Below, piece after piece: positions 31,389 to 40,377 of a stretch of 64,000 bases of DNA. Both the position numbers and the translations under genes were made by a program. Within the stretch, counting starts at the first letter, position 1. The number at the start of each line of letters is the position of its first letter. The notes beneath the pieces were generated by a model. The model saw nothing but the letters and a program-made list of their open reading frames with translations. It ran no database searches and was not told the origin of the DNA. The DNA comes from an uncultured bacterium (lineage in GTDB: Bacteria > Bacillota_I > Bacilli_A > RFN20 > CAG-826), in assembly GCA_949288485.1 (NCBI GenBank), contig CASEKC010000001.1, positions 283,806 through 347,805 on the forward strand, read 5' to 3'.

Positions 31389-32928
31389 TAACAAAAACTT
31401 AAATTCTCTTTCAGAAATTATTAAAGATGAATTAAATAAATATGAACACAAAATAGATACTTCTAACGTTGGCCAAGTTGTTAGTGTTGGTGATTGTATC
31501 GCTACAATTTATGGACTTGATAATGCGATGTATGGGGAACTTATCGAATTTCCAAATGATAACTATGGAATGGTTATGAATATTGAAGAAGAAAGTATCG
31601 GTTGTTCTCTTTTTGGAAGTGTTATTAATATTAAAGAAGGCGATACATGCCAAAGAACTGGAAAAGTTGTTTCAGTTCCAGTTGGTGATGCTCTTTTAGG
31701 TAGAGTTGTAAATTCTCTTGGTCAACCAATTGATGGGAGAGGGCCTATAAAAGCAAGTGGATATCGTCCAGCAGAAATGCCTGCTCCTCAAATTATGGAT
31801 AGACAAAGTGTCAATGAACCACTTGAAACAGGTATTAAAGCAATCGATTCAATGATTCCAATTGGAAAAGGACAAAGAGAATTAATTATTGGGGATAGAC
31901 AAACAGGGAAAACCGCTTTAGCAATAGATACTATTATCAATCAAAAAGGAAAAGATGTAATTTGTGTTTATTGTTCAATCGGACAAAAAAACTCTTCTTT
32001 AGCACAAATTGTCGATCGTTTAAAAAGATTTGATGCTTTTGAATATACAGTCATTGTTAATGCTAGTGCGGCTGAACCTGCACCAATGCAATATTTAGCC
32101 CCATATTCAGCAACTTCTATTGCCGAATATTGGGCTCATCAAGGTAAAAACGTTTTAATTGTTTATGATGATTTATCTAAACATGCTGTCGCCTATAGAA
32201 CACTTCTTCTTTTATTAAGAAGAAGCCCAGGAAGAGAAGCTTATCCTGGAGATATTTTCTATATTCATTCTCGTTTATTAGAAAGAAGTTGCCGATTAAG
32301 TGAAGAACTTAAAGGCGGTTCAATCACTGCTCTTCCAATTGTTGAAACACAAGCCGGAGATATTTCCGCATATATTCCAACAAATATTATTTCTATTACA
32401 GACGGTCAATTGTTTTTAAATAGTGATATGTTTAATAGCGGCCAAAGACCAGCTATTGATTCTGGATTATCCGTTTCACGTGTTGGTAGTGCCGCTCAAT
32501 ATAAAGTCATGAAACAAGTTTCAAAAGATTTAAGAATGGAACTTGCAAACTATCATGAAATGCTCGATTTTTCTAGATTCGGAAGCGATCTTGATAAAGG
32601 AACACAAAAAATATTAACTCATGGTGCGGTTTTACTTGAAACATTAAAGCAAAGACAATATATGCCTCTTTCCCTTGCTCAAGAAGTTGTTGATATTTAT
32701 GTTGCTCAATCAGGCGAGTTAGATGAAATAAAGATTGATAAAATTCATGATGTTTTAAAACTTTTAGATAACTCAATTCTTTCTAAACCAAATAATTTAT
32801 ATGAAAAAATAAATGCAACTAAAGAATTTAATGATGAAGATAAAAAATATGTTATTTCATTATTAAAAACTATTAAATCAACTATAAAAGAAGAAAATAA
32901 AAACGATTTTAATGCAACTAAAGAATAG
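31381..32928 (+). CDS. atpA: F1 subunit alpha
   Basis: [29 protein letters not shown]; start ATG 31381 behind GGAGGAG. Confidence 0.98.
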
Positions 32929-32944
32929 TAATTTTAATTAAAGT

Positions 32945-35327
<2,383 letters not shown>

Positions 35328-35355
35328 CTTTTTATCATTTTAAGATAGTTAATAT

Positions 35356-35775
35356 ATGAATAGTAATGTAATGAAATTAAGAATAGTTACGCCTTATAAA
35401 GTTATCGATTTAGAAAATGTAAAAAGCGTTAACGCTCTAACCGATTTAGGAGAAGTTGAAATTCTTCCTTTTCATTGTTCTTATTTAGCAAACATTGAAA
35501 TATCTGTTTTAACTATTAAATTTTTAGATAAAGAAAAACATTATGCTGTTGGAGGAGGAGCACTCCATTTTATTGAAGAAGAAAATACTCTCGTTTTAAT
35601 TTTAAATTCAATTATTCCAGTTCAAGATATCGATGTTGCTAAAGCTAAGAAAAAACAAATTGAAGCAGAAGCAAAATTAAAAAGAGCTTCTTCTATTTTA
35701 GAACATCGTAAAGCAGAAGTTTCTTTAAGAACATCTTTACTTGAAATAAACGCTAAAAATAACTTCAAAGAATAA
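35356..35775 (+). CDS. atpC: F1 subunit epsilon
   Basis: LRIVTP, GEVEILPFH, AVGGG, DIDVAKA. Confidence 0.95.
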   Translation: MNSNVMKLRIVTPYKVIDLENVKSVNALTDLGEVEILPFHCSYLANIEISVLTIKFLDKEKHYAVGGGALHFIEEENTLVLILNSIIPVQDIDVAKAKKKQIEAEAKLKRASSILEHRKAEVSLRTSLLEINAKNNFKE

Positions 35776-35803
35776 ATATATTATGATATATTTATTAAGC
35801 GTT

Positions 35804-35879
35804 GGGGCTTTAGCTCAGTTGGGAGAGCGCTTCCATGGCATGGAAGAGGTCGCCAGTTCGATCCTGGTAAGCTCCACCA
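35804..35879 (+). tRNA. tRNA-Ala(GGC)
   Basis: GGGGCTTTAGCTCAGTTGGGAGAGCG, arm CTTCC-ATGGCAT-GGAAG, G3:U70 pair, CCA. Confidence 0.97.
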
Positions 35880-35890
35880 AAATATAGATT

Positions 35891-35916
35891 AACACGATTT
35901 ATATCGTGTTTTTTTT
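35891..35916 (+). terminator. Terminator after tRNA-Ala
   Basis: AACACGAT-TTAT-ATCGTGTT plus T-run. Confidence 0.85.
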
Positions 35917-35936
35917 ATTTCCACGTGTAAATTATA

Positions 35937-35985
35937 ATATATTACTAGAATACTTAATATTAATATCAATTAAGCTAGTTTCATT
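35937..35985. repeat. 49-bp direct repeat, copy 1
   Basis: ATATATTACTAGAATACTTAATATTAATATCAATTAAGCTAGTTTCATT; 48/49 identical to 39645-39693. Confidence 0.9.
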
Positions 35986-36034
35986 TAAAACGATTGTATT
36001 TTCAGTATTATAAATATTAAATTCATTTATTAAA

Positions 36035-36415
36035 TTAAAACGAATTATAAAAAGTAAAACTAATTCCGAAGATAAACAAAATAGTCGATAAAAGAAAAAT
36101 TATTAAAGATATATAAAAAGGAAACTCTTTATAATTCCTTAATATAAGTTTTGATATATAAAGAGTATTAAAAACTATTCCTCCAATATTCAACAAAGTT
36201 AACAAAATTGCTAAAATTGGCACTCTCTCAATCATCAAATAATTAATAACATAAACAGACGAAGAATCACTATCAATGATTTTATCTACATATACACCAA
36301 ATGAGGTGAAGGTAAGTATTAAATAAATTATCGAAAAAAACATAAAAATAATACTTAAAATTATAGATTTATCATTTTTAAAAAGTATTTTTATTTTTTC
36401 AATCATTTGCTTCAT
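36035..36415 (-). CDS. Small three-TM membrane protein, paralogue of 36452-36790
   Basis: Shared pattern TF..F...VD.....SS.Y..N......P.....T.....GI..NTL.......K..PFY..II. Confidence 0.8.
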   Translation of the reverse strand: MKQMIEKIKILFKNDKSIILSIIFMFFSIIYLILTFTSFGVYVDKIIDSDSSSVYVINYLMIERVPILAILLTLLNIGGIVFNTLYISKLILRNYKEFPFYISLIIFLLSTILFIFGISFTFYNSF

Positions 36416-36451
36416 TTTTTTGAAAAACCTTTATTATAAAATTGTGATTTT

Positions 36452-36790
36452 TTACCTAGTTTGAACAACAAAACTATTTATACCGCCTATTATAAAGAAG
36501 ATAAAACTTAGCGATAGAAAAATAATAGCTAGATAAAACGGATATCTTTTTTCAGTAGATATAATATCTCCAAGAGTTAAAGTATTAACAATTATTCCAC
36601 TAACACTGCTAATTGTTATTAATGCACACATAAGCGGGGAATTACTAACAATTGAAATGTTGTAAAAATAAATAGAACTTTCGCTTATAGGAGGATGGTA
36701 ATCAACGACAGTTTTAAAATTTACGAATGTAAATACCAATAATAAAATTTCTAAAAATAAAAATGTAATTAAAATAATCTTTTTAGTCAT
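36452..36790 (-). CDS. Small three-TM membrane protein, paralogue of 36035-36415
   Basis: Same pattern; ATGA overlap with upstream peptidase stop. Confidence 0.8.
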   Translation of the reverse strand: MTKKIILITFLFLEILLLVFTFVNFKTVVDYHPPISESSIYFYNISIVSNSPLMCALITISSVSGIIVNTLTLGDIISTEKRYPFYLAIIFLSLSFIFFIIGGINSFVVQTR

Positions 36791-37968
36791 AAGTTATTAT
36801 ATTCCTCAACTTTCCCACAAGGGCAAATAGATTTATTCGTTTGTGTATTTATATAATTATTTGAATGTTTATGTACGTCACTTTTAAACTCAATATCGAT
36901 TGAACCAAACTCATAAAAATTAGTGCCTGATTCATGACCATTGTCAAAGGTTTCCCACCATGTTTTAGCAATGTGCCCCCATCCAGTATGAACATAAACG
37001 AAATCTGAGTCGTAAGCAAAAGCAACTGTTGAATGTCCACAACCATTGGTTATAACCGGCCTATTTTCTTTAATAGTATTTTTAATTATATCTATATTTC
37101 TTCCTGAAAAAATATCTGACAGATTTCCTTCACAAGTATTTAAAACATAATTATCACCATCAAAACCACGAGACATTAAATAACGATTAACAAAATCAAT
37201 ATGAGCTTTAGTACCTAAACCATTGCCAGGATCATCGTACCATACATTATCTTTTAAAAATAAGTAAAGATAATCATGAAATGCACTAACCTCAAATTCA
37301 TCGGTGCCAGGTGATTGATTAAAACTTCTTATATTATTCGTACTATGTTCTTCTTTTGTAGGAATATCATATGTATCTAATACTAAACTGTCATTAACAA
37401 ATGTATCATAGTAACCTAAAAGTATCTGAGTCGAGACAATAAAACATGTCCCATCACTATTTTGACCATGCTTATTCCTTAACTTTTCAAAATAAAACGA
37501 ATTATTAATCTTTGTAGCACTTGTTGGAATACTGTATATCTCTTCATAATCTCCAGCTTCGAAATTTAATTCTGCAATTTTATGTAAATTGTCATCTTCA
37601 ATTATTATATCGCTATTTAAATCAATGAAATTCCTTCCATTAAAAACAATTTCGTTAATATCCCCTTTCTCAGCAAAAATTTTTAAGAATTTTTGATCAT
37701 AAGATTCATATGGAAAAAATGATTGCTCCCATTTCTTTGTTACTTCACCATTCAATTTGTTCTCTAAAATATAATTGTCATCATATTTATACAATGTGTA
37801 TTTATTAGCGCCACTTGGTGTATAGACTTCATCAATATATTGTTTTCTTAAATTTATAGTATTGCTTTTTAAATTACTATTTTCTAAATTATCATAATTT
37901 ACAAATGACCTGACATTTGTTGCCTCAAATAAAGAAGCCAAAGCAATACCGAGTAAATATTCAACCAT
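36787..37968 (-). CDS. Putative secreted papain-fold cysteine peptidase (C10/C39-like)
   Basis: GQNSDGTC (Cys), RPVI..GCGHSTVAFAY (His), VYVHTGWG; hydrophobic N-terminus; AGGAGG RBS. Confidence 0.7.
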   Translation of the reverse strand: MVEYLLGIALASLFEATNVRSFVNYDNLENSNLKSNTINLRKQYIDEVYTPSGANKYTLYKYDDNYILENKLNGEVTKKWEQSFFPYESYDQKFLKIFAEKGDINEIVFNGRNFIDLNSDIIIEDDNLHKIAELNFEAGDYEEIYSIPTSATKINNSFYFEKLRNKHGQNSDGTCFIVSTQILLGYYDTFVNDSLVLDTYDIPTKEEHSTNNIRSFNQSPGTDEFEVSAFHDYLYLFLKDNVWYDDPGNGLGTKAHIDFVNRYLMSRGFDGDNYVLNTCEGNLSDIFSGRNIDIIKNTIKENRPVITNGCGHSTVAFAYDSDFVYVHTGWGHIAKTWWETFDNGHESGTNFYEFGSIDIEFKSDVHKHSNNYINTQTNKSICPCGKVEEYNNL

Positions 37969-38132
37969 AAAAACCTCCTTAATCTCATGCGATTGATATT
38001 AATAATATTAACTTTATAATATATTTAACTATGATTGATAATCAAAATAATTATTACTTTTTTATTGTTCTTATTTCGAACATTTGATTTTTATCGCATT
38101 TTTATAGGCTTTTAGATAAAATATTTATTAGT

Positions 38133-38639
38133 ATGATTGATAAAAAAGTAATAGGACAAAATATTAAAAATATTAGATATAAGTTGGGGTTAAGTCAAGA
38201 TGAATTTTCATCAAAAATATTTATATCAAGGTCATCACTATCAAAAATTGAAAATGGTAAGCAACTTATTGATTTAGATTTATCAATAACTATTTCAGAA
38301 ACTTTTAATGTCCCTTTAAGTGAAATTTTAAAAGGTTCTTATAAAGAAAATAAAGAATCAACAATTAACTCAAATTATAAATTTAAAGTTTATTTTAATA
38401 TTTCTTTATTATCACTTATTTTAATACTTCTACTTTTTCAATATTTTTATTCGCTTTCTAACAAGCTTTATTATAATCAAGTTTATTCATCATTATGGCG
38501 GTATTTTAAATTTGACCAACCATATTTAATATTGTTTAACCTTTTGTTTTATTTTTTGCTTATTTTAGAAATAATATCTTTTGTTTTACTTATAAGGAGT
38601 TTAATTAATGTTAAAAAATTTGAAAATAGTCGTAATTAA
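38133..38639 (+). CDS. XRE-family HTH regulator with two C-terminal TM helices
   Basis: IGQNIKNIRYKLGLSQDEF...ISRSSLSKIENG...FNVPLSEIL followed by two hydrophobic helices. Confidence 0.9.
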   Translation: MIDKKVIGQNIKNIRYKLGLSQDEFSSKIFISRSSLSKIENGKQLIDLDLSITISETFNVPLSEILKGSYKENKESTINSNYKFKVYFNISLLSLILILLLFQYFYSLSNKLYYNQVYSSLWRYFKFDQPYLILFNLLFYFLLILEIISFVLLIRSLINVKKFENSRN

Positions 38640-39606
38640 TTTAATATCAATTTTTAGTTTTTGCACTTTTTCTTCTTGCGCTAAAGAAAATGCAAGTGAA
38701 TATACGAAAATTGATTTTATTAATGATTTTGATTTAAGCAATAATCTTATTTATAAAGTCAAAGATAATATCCATTCTCTTAATTTCACTTTTAATAGTC
38801 TTTCTTTTTTTAATAATATTTATTCAAATAAAAAATATATTATTGAGATTGGAAAATTAAACTTTGAAAAAAGTTTATCTATAAACGAAATAAAATTAAA
38901 ATCTTCTTTTGCTATAACTCCCTTAGCTTTAAAAGAAGCAATAAAATATATAGAAAAAATATATACAAATAATGATTCAAAAACATTTTTTTATTTTAAT
39001 GAAAACATAAATGAAGATTTAATTGAACATAATGTTTCATTTACTGTATTAAATAAAAACAATAATCTTTTAGGAATTTTAAAAGAAGATTTTTACATTT
39101 TTAAAAGTAATATAGATAATAATATTTACTATTCATTATTTAGTGATTATATTTTTTATCCTTATAATAATCGATATCGTATTAAAAAATTTAGCGATGA
39201 TTATTTAGTTAATCATTATGTTTATGAAAGATATCAATTTCCTTTAAATAGAAATATTAAAAATTTAAATGAATTTAATGATGAACTTTTTGTATCCTTT
39301 TCTAATAAAAATATAGATTTTTATATTAAAAATTCTTTTAATAGTTTTTCACCCAATATTAAAACCGAAGCAACTATATTAAATACAAATATATCATACG
39401 AATTTATTAACCCATCATCGAACAAATTCCCTTATATGGGATACTATTCCTCACCTATTTCTTTTTGTAGCTTTCTTTCGTTAAAAAAAGATAATTTAAA
39501 TGAAGAATTAAAAATAAATAAAAATATGGGCGTTTCAATATTAAAGTCAAATGGAAGTATTTTTGATAACGAAGAATATTCTTTTACATTAACAAGTTTT
39601 CTTTAA
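38608..39606 (+). CDS. Hypothetical lipoprotein
   Basis: Lipobox-like FSSC; 332-aa ORF overlapping the XRE gene by 32 nt. Confidence 0.7.
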   Translation: MLKNLKIVVINLISIFSFCTFSSCAKENASEYTKIDFINDFDLSNNLIYKVKDNIHSLNFTFNSLSFFNNIYSNKKYIIEIGKLNFEKSLSINEIKLKSSFAITPLALKEAIKYIEKIYTNNDSKTFFYFNENINEDLIEHNVSFTVLNKNNNLLGILKEDFYIFKSNIDNNIYYSLFSDYIFYPYNNRYRIKKFSDDYLVNHYVYERYQFPLNRNIKNLNEFNDELFVSFSNKNIDFYIKNSFNSFSPNIKTEATILNTNISYEFINPSSNKFPYMGYYSSPISFCSFLSLKKDNLNEELKINKNMGVSILKSNGSIFDNEEYSFTLTSFL

Positions 39607-39642: not shown

Positions 39643-40212
39643 CTATATATTACTAGAATACTTAATATTAATATCAATTAAACTAGTTTCATTAAAGATT
39701 GATGTATCTAAATATAAATAATATAAATTATAAGAAGAATCTTGATAAACTTTTATTCCTTCTTCTAACTTATCATCAATAATAAAATCAATACTGATTT
39801 TATTATTGAATAAATTATTTTTAATAGATACATAATAAGTAGGATATGAAGATGAATGAGTTATAATCAAAGTTTCAATTATCATTTTATTAACTAATTC
39901 ATTTTTAGTTAATAATCCTAGACTACCTTTATTTTCTTGAATAATCTCATAAAATGTTGAAATACGTTTATAATATTCTTCATAACCAAGTTTTTTATAT
40001 TTTAAAGAGTCATTTTCTAAATATTCATTAATAATATCAGATAATGTAAATTCATTTTCATTTGTCTTCCCAGGAATCGCAAAAAAACGAAAATGGCCAG
40101 CTTCTTTTTCTAAGTTATTAATCTTAAAATCTTTATTAATATTATTACAAGAAGTTAAAATATTAAATAATAGAATAAACGATATAGCTTTAATAAAATT
40201 TCTTTTTTTCAT
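39643..40212 (-). CDS. Hypothetical lipoprotein
   Basis: MKKRNFIKAISFILLFNILTSC lipobox. Confidence 0.75.
   Translation of the reverse strand: MKKRNFIKAISFILLFNILTSCNNINKDFKINNLEKEAGHFRFFAIPGKTNENEFTLSDIINEYLENDSLKYKKLGYEEYYKRISTFYEIIQENKGSLGLLTKNELVNKMIIETLIITHSSSYPTYYVSIKNNLFNNKISIDFIIDDKLEEGIKVYQDSSYNLYYLYLDTSIFNETSLIDINIKYSSNI
39645..39693. repeat. 49-bp direct repeat, copy 2 (3' end of the 189-aa lipoprotein gene)
   Basis: ATATATTACTAGAATACTTAATATTAATATCAATTAAACTAGTTTCATT. Confidence 0.9.
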
Positions 40213-40299: not shown

Positions 40300-40377
40300 T
40301 GGCGCCCACGAGAGGATTCGAACTTCCGACTTTCACCTTAGGAGGGTGCTACTCTATCCAAGCTGAGTTACGTGGGC
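40300..40377 (-). tRNA. tRNA-Arg(CCT)
   Basis: Acceptor GCCCACG/CGTGGGC, arm GCACC-CTCCTAA-GGTGA, TTCGAAT, CCA. Confidence 0.92.

Follow-up and report, generated by a model that had tools for sequence, protein, structure and literature searches.

What does an uncultured bacterium of the animal gut do with a cysteine peptidase, two small membrane proteins, a membrane-anchored regulator and a lipoprotein that are encoded together in one compact block? The question is raised by five genes at positions 36035-39606 of a window of 64,000 nucleotides, by which we mean the whole stretch of DNA analyzed here (assembly GCA_949288485.1, contig CASEKC010000001.1, positions 283,806 to 347,805 of the forward strand; GTDB lineage Bacteria, Bacillota_I, Bacilli_A, RFN20, CAG-826). 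On balance, we read this locus as a mobile, regulated, exported protease module with the regulator, the lipoprotein and the peptidase as its core. Members of the peptidase family repeatedly have an XRE-type transmembrane (TM) regulator and a lipoprotein as genetic neighbors, a link that we found independently in other genera, arranged in one way, and at three loci of the genome to which the window belongs, arranged in another. Across this order of small-genome gut Bacilli the distribution of the family is patchy. None of the three protein families (regulator, lipoprotein and peptidase) has a curated model or a described member, and we found no description of such a system in these taxa in the literature searched, beyond which other papers may hold more. 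The genome amounts to 1.36 Mb on 15 contigs and is rated 96% complete, and the window is AT-rich (G+C 18-34%). The block is composed of the following parts:

tmB, 36035-36415, minus strand: 126 aa, small membrane protein with three main hydrophobic segments, an orphan paralogue of tmA.
tmA, 36452-36790, minus strand: 112 aa, predicted three-TM protein, its start overlapping the stop of pep (ATGA).
pep, 36787-37968, minus strand: 393 aa, cysteine peptidase with a clan CA papain fold in its model, a short form, on the border between C10 and C39-like enzymes.
Divergent control region, 37969-38132: 164 bp between the peptidase operon and the regulator operon.
XRE-2TM, 38133-38639, plus strand: 168 aa, XRE-family helix-turn-helix (HTH) fused to two predicted TM helices.
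lipo1, 38608-39606, plus strand: 332 aa, probable lipoprotein, its gene overlapping that of XRE-2TM by 32 nt.

The preliminary description of this DNA had drawn these parts from the letters alone, and its account of them was borne out. All five open reading frames (ORFs) are present under translation table 11; the translation of pep displays GQNSDGTC (Cys175), GHSTVAFAY (His312), VHTGWG and the HKHS...CPCG tail; tmA shares its ATGA letters with the end of pep, as expected of translational coupling; tmA and tmB are paralogues (37% identity over 102 aa, E 4e-16); and the regulator, whose gene does overlap the lipoprotein gene, scores above the Pfam cut-offs for HTH_19 and HTH_3 at residues 8-68 and shows two hydrophobic segments in a hydropathy scan, near residues 84 and 136. 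We read the five ORFs as real genes and not as chance ORFs because the block is 97-99% conserved in a sister genome, with 97% identity over the whole block in G167, because nearly identical copies of tmB and lipo1 are present among public proteins, and because contigs from 13 listed runs, all of DNA and drawn from 4 studies, contain cassette DNA; four of these runs (4 studies) were aligned to the window.

To characterize what accompanies the peptidase elsewhere, we collected 48 peptidase-selected loci from genomes and metagenomes, excluded the window's species, collapsed the loci into 31 clusters at 90% peptidase identity, and classed the neighbors that lie on the same strand within 350 nt by hidden Markov models (HMMs) and simple rules. 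A membrane protein of a family that we term XRE-3TM adjoins the peptidase in 9 of the 31 clusters. In seven of them an XRE-3TM protein with its HTH lies immediately upstream of the peptidase and co-directional with it, sometimes with a 4-nt overlap, and in two the neighbor is an HTH-less member of the family (downstream in L017, upstream in L110). The loop between TM1 and TM2 of XRE-3TM holds invariant Tyr, Pro and Gly residues. Lipoproteins or N-anchored proteins of about 170-270 aa were the more frequent companions, adjoining the peptidase in 19/31 clusters with stop and start often overlapping; both partner types occur in two clusters and neither in five. By sequence, 14 of these partners (12 loci) group into a single family, to which a second small family is linked (hhalign 72%). 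The partner lipoprotein that was scanned, that of L026, has no Pfam family, and its matches in the ESM Atlas stay below 0.9 with structural TM-scores below 0.4, for a model of poor quality. XRE-3TM proteins reach beyond the peptidase, being present in 63 of 401 genomes of the order. Among 30 loci chosen by the XRE-3TM profile, eight have a peptidase directly downstream and one a remnant of it, and one is the HTH-less form. Several peptidase genes among the homologous loci are split or truncated; most related genomes are metagenome assemblies, and some of these broken genes may be assembly errors.

The window's own genome brings the same kinds of partners together in a different arrangement. 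XRE-2TM has three paralogues there, the closest with 33% identity over 168 aa (E 2.4e-16), and the four proteins align over their whole length, share invariant residues in the TM and loop part, and keep in all copies the N-terminal DNA-binding domain followed by TM segments that defines transmembrane regulators. Each of the three paralogues is followed by a lipoprotein gene, two of which are intact (356 and 346 aa; overlaps of 29 and 23 nt) and one frameshifted. The pairing is thus present at four loci of this genome, one frameshifted, and at one locus of the same-genus genome G179, with an overlap of 23-32 nt in the four intact pairs, and the lipoproteins of the paralogous pairs are homologous to one another (E 3.5e-6 and 7e-28). 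This recurrence lends weight to the earlier suggestion of a ToxRS-like HTH-TM protein with a lipoprotein partner, and it fits a two-part transmembrane sensor. Three of the four pairs adjoin a peptidase paralogue, in keeping with the three genes that the peptidase family HMM finds in this genome. One diverged paralogue lies on contig C4 (104085-105230; L119:3486-4631), between an XRE-2TM/lipoprotein pair, which precedes it, and a fused ABC/FtsX gene, which follows it; it is interrupted by one in-frame TGA, its halves align to the family at hhalign 97.1% and 80.4%, and it keeps the Cys, His and HxH...CxC motifs. The other, on contig C5, has 405 aa (hhalign 97.5%) and stands just downstream of an XRE-2TM/lipoprotein pair. 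A one-sequence search had given a single match and suggested pep to be a single-copy gene, which the family HMM refuted.

Beside these findings, we observed that the C5 locus (32224-36429; L120) consists of an XRE-2TM gene, the frameshifted lipoprotein gene, the 405-aa peptidase paralogue and a 426-aa lipoprotein gene. The frameshift is identical in the sister genome G167, and the 405-aa paralogue comes without the N-terminal domain and with extra Cys pairs at its end. The genome encodes at least nine XRE-HTH proteins with a predicted C-terminal TM part, plus many soluble ones (24 HTH ORFs), and C5 also carries five XRE genes in tandem, each encoding about 100 aa (67884-69445).

Across related taxa, homologues of pep are patchy, being detected in 33/201 genomes of the order at E<=1e-5 (12 of these at E<=4e-39) and in two of ten same-genus genomes, one of the two matches being a close copy. 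The TM family of XRE-2TM is narrowly distributed: at E<=0.001 it is matched in 9 of 201 genomes of the bacterial family, convincingly in five. As for lipo1, it starts with a basic and hydrophobic leader that ends in Cys, has no Pfam or NCBIfam family, bears no likeness to the peptidase family profile, aligns to both partner-lipoprotein families at hhalign values below 1%, has a homologue in its own species only, and returned nothing usable from the ESM Atlas.

Next, we analyzed the structure and the family of the peptidase. A homologue search over 5.8 billion proteins yielded 73 relatives, and the model of pep, built with these 74 sequences, reached a pLDDT of 91.5 and a pTM of 0.90. The protein divides as follows:

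pep residues 1-17: uncharged hydrophobic helix.
pep residues ~40-135: beta-rich N-domain.
pep residues 148-366: catalytic domain with Cys175 and His312.
pep residues 366-384: HxH...CxC tail.

The model has a papain fold with the Cys before the His: a helix (175-190) begins with Cys175 and a strand (312-319) with His312, and both residues are at least 90% conserved in the 74 sequences. Foldseek placed prointerpain A first (E 7.5e-6), followed by the SpeB zymogen (2.5e-5 to 3e-5) and then a C39-like peptidase, while VIA, whose matches cover residues 148-366, scored papain-fold enzymes down to about Z 10 and gave its best score to a phytochelatin-synthase-like enzyme (Z 13.8, root-mean-square deviation 3.1, 176 aligned residues), then to IdeS/Mac-1 and the C39-like 3erv (both Z 11.4), the cathepsins (about 10.8) and SpeB (10.2-10.4). 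On this model pep certainly belongs to clan CA, the papain-like peptidases. The Foldseek comparison that the preliminary description had called for thus recovered the papain fold that it predicted, with C10 zymogens as the nearest solved relatives, but its further comparison with family C10 did not extend to membership, the thresholds for which were failed. Among the 74 sequences, Pfam C10 is matched by 10 and C39_2 by 23 at E<=0.01. When 12 homologues were scanned singly, one reached the C10 cut-off (P0025, 26.5 against 26 bits) and one the C39_2 cut-off, and one homologue is labelled 'C10 family peptidase' by its source. Searches of NCBIfam gave nothing for pep, and comparison with solved structures by sequence or profile gave no match, solved C10 chains included. 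By its sequence, therefore, the family of pep is a borderline case, best described as an unnamed family on the C10/C39-like border.

The regions outside the catalytic domain are less readily placed. Residues 18-147, modelled alone, gave a beta-rich structure (pLDDT 80) with no Foldseek match at E<=0.001 and a best VIA score of Z 4.2; we infer a prodomain here from position alone. The HxH...CxC tail is conserved in the family and may bind a metal. At the other end, a leader ending in I/L-T-G near residue 15 is common to 42 of the 74 members, with a basic residue before it in 2 of the 42, and distant homologues carry ordinary signal or lipoprotein leaders; the short hydrophobic leader of pep is accordingly predicted to be an atypical export signal. 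An AAGGAGG ribosome-binding site precedes pep. Most homologues have about 560 aa and an extra C-terminal domain of about 170 aa, the window copy being, like a few others, a short form.

Several variants of the peptidase are recorded here in their own right. In the long forms (P0003-P0053 and others; A1 columns ~560-750) the extra domain has a conserved ...GRISIGN... end, and the one that was scanned (P0022) has no Pfam match in this domain. In the sister genome (L004:6001-7182, L022) codon 367 of pep is changed from AAA (Lys) to TAA (36868-36870 in the window), so that the HxH...CxC tail is lost and the ORF stops 26 codons short of the tmA start. The public homologue P0001, 95% identical, is 6 residues longer by a reading of TGA as Trp (code 4), and Arg replaces Trp in its VHTGWG motif. 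This read-through of the pep TGA in P0001, together with the in-frame TGA of one peptidase paralogue, gave grounds for considering genetic code 4 (TGA as Trp) for the genome. We rejected it: the 1521-aa PolC and other long genes are open under table 11, and TGA is therefore a stop here.

The limits of the block were then compared with its surroundings, for which the following features are needed:

tRNA-Ala(ggc) with the sole terminator-like hairpin of the region, 35804-35910, plus strand: flank.
Left direct repeat, 35937-35999: duplicated copy of the 3' end of the adjoining 189-aa lipoprotein gene, left boundary of the cassette.
Gene of a 189-aa probable lipoprotein, 39643-40212, minus strand: sixth gene, adjoining the block and outside the cassette.
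Right direct repeat, 39645-39707: overlaps the 3' end of the 189-aa lipoprotein gene.
tRNA-Arg(cct), 40300-40377, minus strand: flank.

Beyond the two tRNA genes lie atpGDC on one side and polC on the other. The direct repeats have 63 nt and are 89% identical (96% in the first 52 nt) at a spacing of 3708; they contain an imperfect palindrome and have no third copy in the genome. In the sister species G189, flanks 92-96% identical to those of the window meet at a single repeat copy, the tRNA-Ala terminator being followed directly by the 3' end of the 189-aa lipoprotein gene, and a search of the G189 genome recovered none of the five genes. From this empty site and the direct repeats it follows that positions 36035-39606, which had been proposed as one discrete five-gene module, correspond to a 3.7-kb unit in which genes are naturally gained or lost, which varies among strains and excludes the 189-aa gene. 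Another same-genus genome, G179 (L052), has tRNA-Ala and tRNA-Arg 70 nt apart with nothing in between. In one public sequencing run a 3731-nt assembly contig ends within both repeats. In run X6 the cassette contig has a depth of 49 against 86-89 for the flanks, which could reflect a mixture of carriers and non-carriers, but contig depth is a sum over related organisms and the difference carries no weight here. No contig of the four aligned runs spans an empty site, and the listed contig joints have sides of 20-24 letters and are unreliable, with one exception of 75 that lies outside the cassette. We found no recombinase gene within the cassette and no match in phage or plasmid collections. With no recombinase of its own, and with a duplicated gene end that contains a palindrome at its borders, the cassette neatly exemplifies a unit by which genes are gained and lost.

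The same intergenic gap varies in other ways. In the same-genus genome G220 (L053, 853-1344) it holds one unrelated 163-aa gene, and the gap between tRNA-Ala and tRNA-Arg is therefore a general hotspot for variable genes. Two contigs of G189, C11 and C15 (L057/L058), break just after tRNA-Ala at inverted terminal sequences of about 22 nt; the site seems duplicated in G189, and the arrangement looks like an insertion-sequence-like element at the same hotspot.

How might such a unit work? In the module that we favor, XRE-2TM, with lipo1 as its extracytoplasmic co-sensor, would sense something outside the cell and control transcription from the 164-bp divergent region. The peptidase would be exported via its short uncharged N-terminal leader and would degrade extracellular host or dietary proteins or peptides, as is reported for SpeB and the Bacteroides C10 proteases. 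The proteins encoded beside homologues elsewhere are predicted lipoproteins, which speaks for export. The small proteins tmA and tmB, presumably co-transcribed and translationally coupled with pep, would be membrane accessory proteins of the peptidase operon. Their role, the least certain step of the scheme, may be that of HTH-less counterparts to the membrane module of the regulator, or of anchoring or self-protection factors. In the control region lies the best sigma-70-like match of the 4.7-kb region (TTGATA-16-TATAAT, 37993-38020, plus strand, 11/12), a match to the consensus alone. We also observed there an 18-codon hydrophobic ORF (38031-38087, plus strand), about 10 nt past the best -10 hexamer, whose first 12 nt (ATGATTGATAA-) repeat the start of the XRE-2TM gene; it may represent a leader peptide or the remnant of a duplication, or have arisen by chance.

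From a basic N-terminus, both small proteins run through TM1, a loop of about 28 residues, TM2 and a short basic loop to TM3, with which they end, and the membrane module of XRE-3TM is built in the same way. A word-indexed search with tmB returned copies of 96-100% identity only, and a tmA+tmB profile, run exhaustively with HMMER against 1.84 billion representative proteins, produced three hits only (tmB, tmA and a fragment), by which the two are species-restricted orphans. Against a 31-sequence profile of the XRE-3TM module, they aligned co-linearly over 117-119 columns (hhalign 34-35%, E 7.7e-5 to 4e-4); a shallower XRE-3TM profile gave hhalign 2%, and an HMM search gave no match. Kinship between tmA/tmB and the XRE-3TM module is at most suggested by the co-linear alignment, as TM composition inflates such scores.

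A number of observations weigh against the protease module as we draw it. With respect to the regulator, XRE-2TM is by its sequence not a member of the XRE-3TM family: the XRE-3TM TM profile finds nothing better than E 0.57 in the window's genome, hhalign against XRE-2TM stays below 1%, and by the HTH profile of the XRE-3TM family XRE-2TM ranks 18th of the 24 HTH proteins of the genome. The link to the peptidase is also incomplete, as 20 of the 30 loci selected by XRE-3TM come without a peptidase, and neither the fourth XRE-2TM pair of this genome nor the pair examined in G179 has a peptidase beside it. The window's lipoprotein sits loosely with its presumed kin, lipo1 matching two of the paralogous lipoproteins only weakly, at co-linear positions in the C-terminal part (E 0.006 and 0.012; hhalign 1.3%). 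For the peptidase, Pfam PF01640 (C10) gives no match to pep at E<=1, its threshold being left unreached, and the sole Pfam hit, PF13529 (Peptidase_C39_2), has 14.6 bits against a cut-off of 24; the N-domain showed no likeness to the C10 prodomain, and the term 'zymogen' rests on its position. Export itself is only predicted, the leader of pep lacking basic residues and having lost the T-G motif, and a cytoplasmic location would undercut the module. Finally, the TM and lipobox calls come from our own simple rules and a hydropathy script and not from a dedicated predictor.

Part of this evidence could be read otherwise. In a regulated proteolysis switch, pep would cleave the membrane-tethered regulator or its HTH-less 3-TM relatives, and the HTH would be released or inactivated once the conserved extracytoplasmic loop is cut or bound, which would make the locus a signalling device and not a nutritional or host-directed protease. 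The seven clusters with XRE-3TM immediately upstream of the peptidase, the two more with adjacent HTH-less members, the invariant Tyr, Pro and Gly of the TM1-TM2 loop, the three XRE-2TM pairs that adjoin a peptidase paralogue, and the membrane-module topology and co-linear alignment of tmA/tmB all agree with such a switch. However, the XRE-3TM family occurs mostly without the peptidase, and the window's regulator is divergent from pep and stands outside the XRE-3TM TM family, and we consider the switch unlikely. In its fullest form, peptidase, membrane-tethered XRE regulator and lipoprotein would constitute an undescribed protease-coupled transmembrane signalling system of small-genome gut Bacilli, a proposal that we consider unlikely. 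Within it, the exported peptidase would act on, or be sensed through, the short extracytoplasmic loop of the regulator's membrane module; this module would come either fused to an HTH (XRE-3TM, XRE-2TM) or stand-alone (the L017 type and possibly tmA/tmB); and the units would multiply as paralogues and move as recombinase-less, repeat-flanked cassettes. If the reading of a protease-coupled sensor were true, it would be a new mechanism for transmembrane one-component signalling.

The preliminary description had leaned towards a polymorphic toxin/immunity locus, in which pep would reach competing cells and tmA/tmB would shield the cell that makes it. Directly downstream of pep there are indeed two small orphan paralogues that evolve fast, one of them translationally coupled; the unit is mobile; and a papain-like toxin/immunity pair with a small gene downstream is known in Cpe1-Cpi1 (PMC12136450), with 9l5u among the fold matches of pep (Z 10.2). 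Yet this match is no better than those of dozens of ordinary papain-fold enzymes, and the Cpe1 family is reported in PMC12136450 from Gram-negative type VI secretion system (T6SS) and contact-dependent inhibition (CDI) contexts, to whose delivery it is tied, with a soluble immunity protein. By contrast, pep has no recognizable delivery or trafficking domain and an N-domain without a known fold match, and the genes downstream encode membrane orphans. In Pfam, NCBIfam and PADLOC, pep shows no domain beyond the weak peptidase match; the genome was not surveyed for secretion systems. The toxin layout also fared poorly in the neighborhood survey, where a recurring combination of pep with tmA/tmB would have counted in its favor: relatives of the small genes beside a peptidase are confined to the 97-99% conserved sister genome, they adjoin the peptidase in 0/31 clusters outside the window's species, and the conserved neighbors are the regulator and lipoproteins. 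In the sister genome the pep tail is lost by a nonsense codon while the small genes are intact, a state that neither needs nor excludes immunity. We therefore regard an interbacterial toxin as improbable.

Still less support goes to an anti-phage defence or mobile-element accessory module, with pep as an effector triggered through the membrane regulator. Some homologous regulator-peptidase pairs do stand in mobile or defence-island settings: near a Pycsar-like cyclase, a PycTM effector and an ArdC-like gene (L013:7751-9096), near a TIR/ThsB-like gene with DUF4365 (L007:3098-4724), near a tyrosine integrase and a Bro/ANT antirepressor (L010:1616-3357), and near a resolvase (L006:6017-6616); the window copy, too, is a mobile cassette. 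However, PADLOC and PHROGs hold no family for pep, tmA, tmB, lipo1 or a partner lipoprotein and match generic HTH models only, the phage and plasmid collections gave no hits, and the lipoprotein partners and signal-like leaders point outside the cell, which together make this reading very improbable. Least credible of all is a C39-like peptidase that processes the leader of a secreted peptide signal or bacteriocin, for although C39_2 is matched by more of the family than C10, the C39-like 3erv is among the better VIA matches and one paralogue in this genome is followed by the ABC/FtsX gene, the cassette holds neither an ABC exporter nor a double-glycine precursor gene, pep is free-standing with a large N-domain, and its C39_2 score is far below the threshold.

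Returning to the exported protease module, we compared it with described systems. ProSpeB has 398 aa, the HTH of RopB is of the XRE type, and BcrR combines an XRE-type HTH with four TM helices. Among known loci, the cassette would by analogy work most like those of SpeB and the Bacteroides C10 proteases, for which PMC2873492 and PMC10518010 describe an exported papain-like protease, adjacent regulator or small partner genes, paralogues and mobile contexts. With SpeB, pep shares the papain fold with Cys before His, a similar size, a non-catalytic N-terminal region of about 150 aa ahead of the catalytic domain, and a place for SpeB zymogen structures among its best Foldseek matches. An HTH transcription regulator gene stands beside the protease gene in both, RopB controlling speB according to PMC10518010, and so does a small accessory gene, Spi in the case of SpeB (cited in PMC2873492). 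The differences are that pep has no significant sequence match to the solved C10 enzymes and falls short of the Pfam C10 threshold, that its N-domain shows no demonstrated resemblance to the C10 prodomain, that the window's regulator is membrane-anchored and lacks a peptide-binding repeat domain, that pep carries the HxH...CxC tail, and that the genes downstream encode 3-TM proteins and not a propeptide-like inhibitor.

The Bfp/Bfi loci of B. fragilis offer a second parallel. According to PMC2873492, they encode SpeB-like proteases of gut commensals, with co-transcribed small partner genes adjacent to them, several with lipoprotein leaders, and with several paralogues per genome, some on mobile elements. 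The Bfi proteins are staphostatin-like inhibitors. The partner lipoproteins of pep homologues have about 190-270 aa and no detectable family; moreover, the window's cassette lacks the partner-lipoprotein family, a membrane regulator is part of its unit, and the host phylum differs.

The XRE-2TM/lipo1 pair, in turn, would by analogy work most like transmembrane regulators with a co-component, as treated in PMC10269533. Like ToxR/ToxS and the one-component XRE-type sensor BcrR, XRE-2TM has an N-terminal DNA-binding domain followed by C-terminal TM helices, and like ToxR/ToxS it has an extracytoplasmic protein encoded directly downstream, here by an overlapping gene, the pair being kept in four paralogous copies. 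In contrast to the winged helix of ToxR, the HTH of XRE-2TM is of the XRE type; a loop of about 30 residues is all that remains of its periplasmic sensor domain, and its partners are lipoproteins of 316-356 aa of no known family.

With three such loci in a genome of 1.36 Mb and a differently wired version in relatives across the order, the trio of regulator, lipoprotein and peptidase is probably important for life in the animal gut. If pep indeed acts at the cell surface or is secreted, this poorly known uncultured group may use it to degrade host or dietary proteins.

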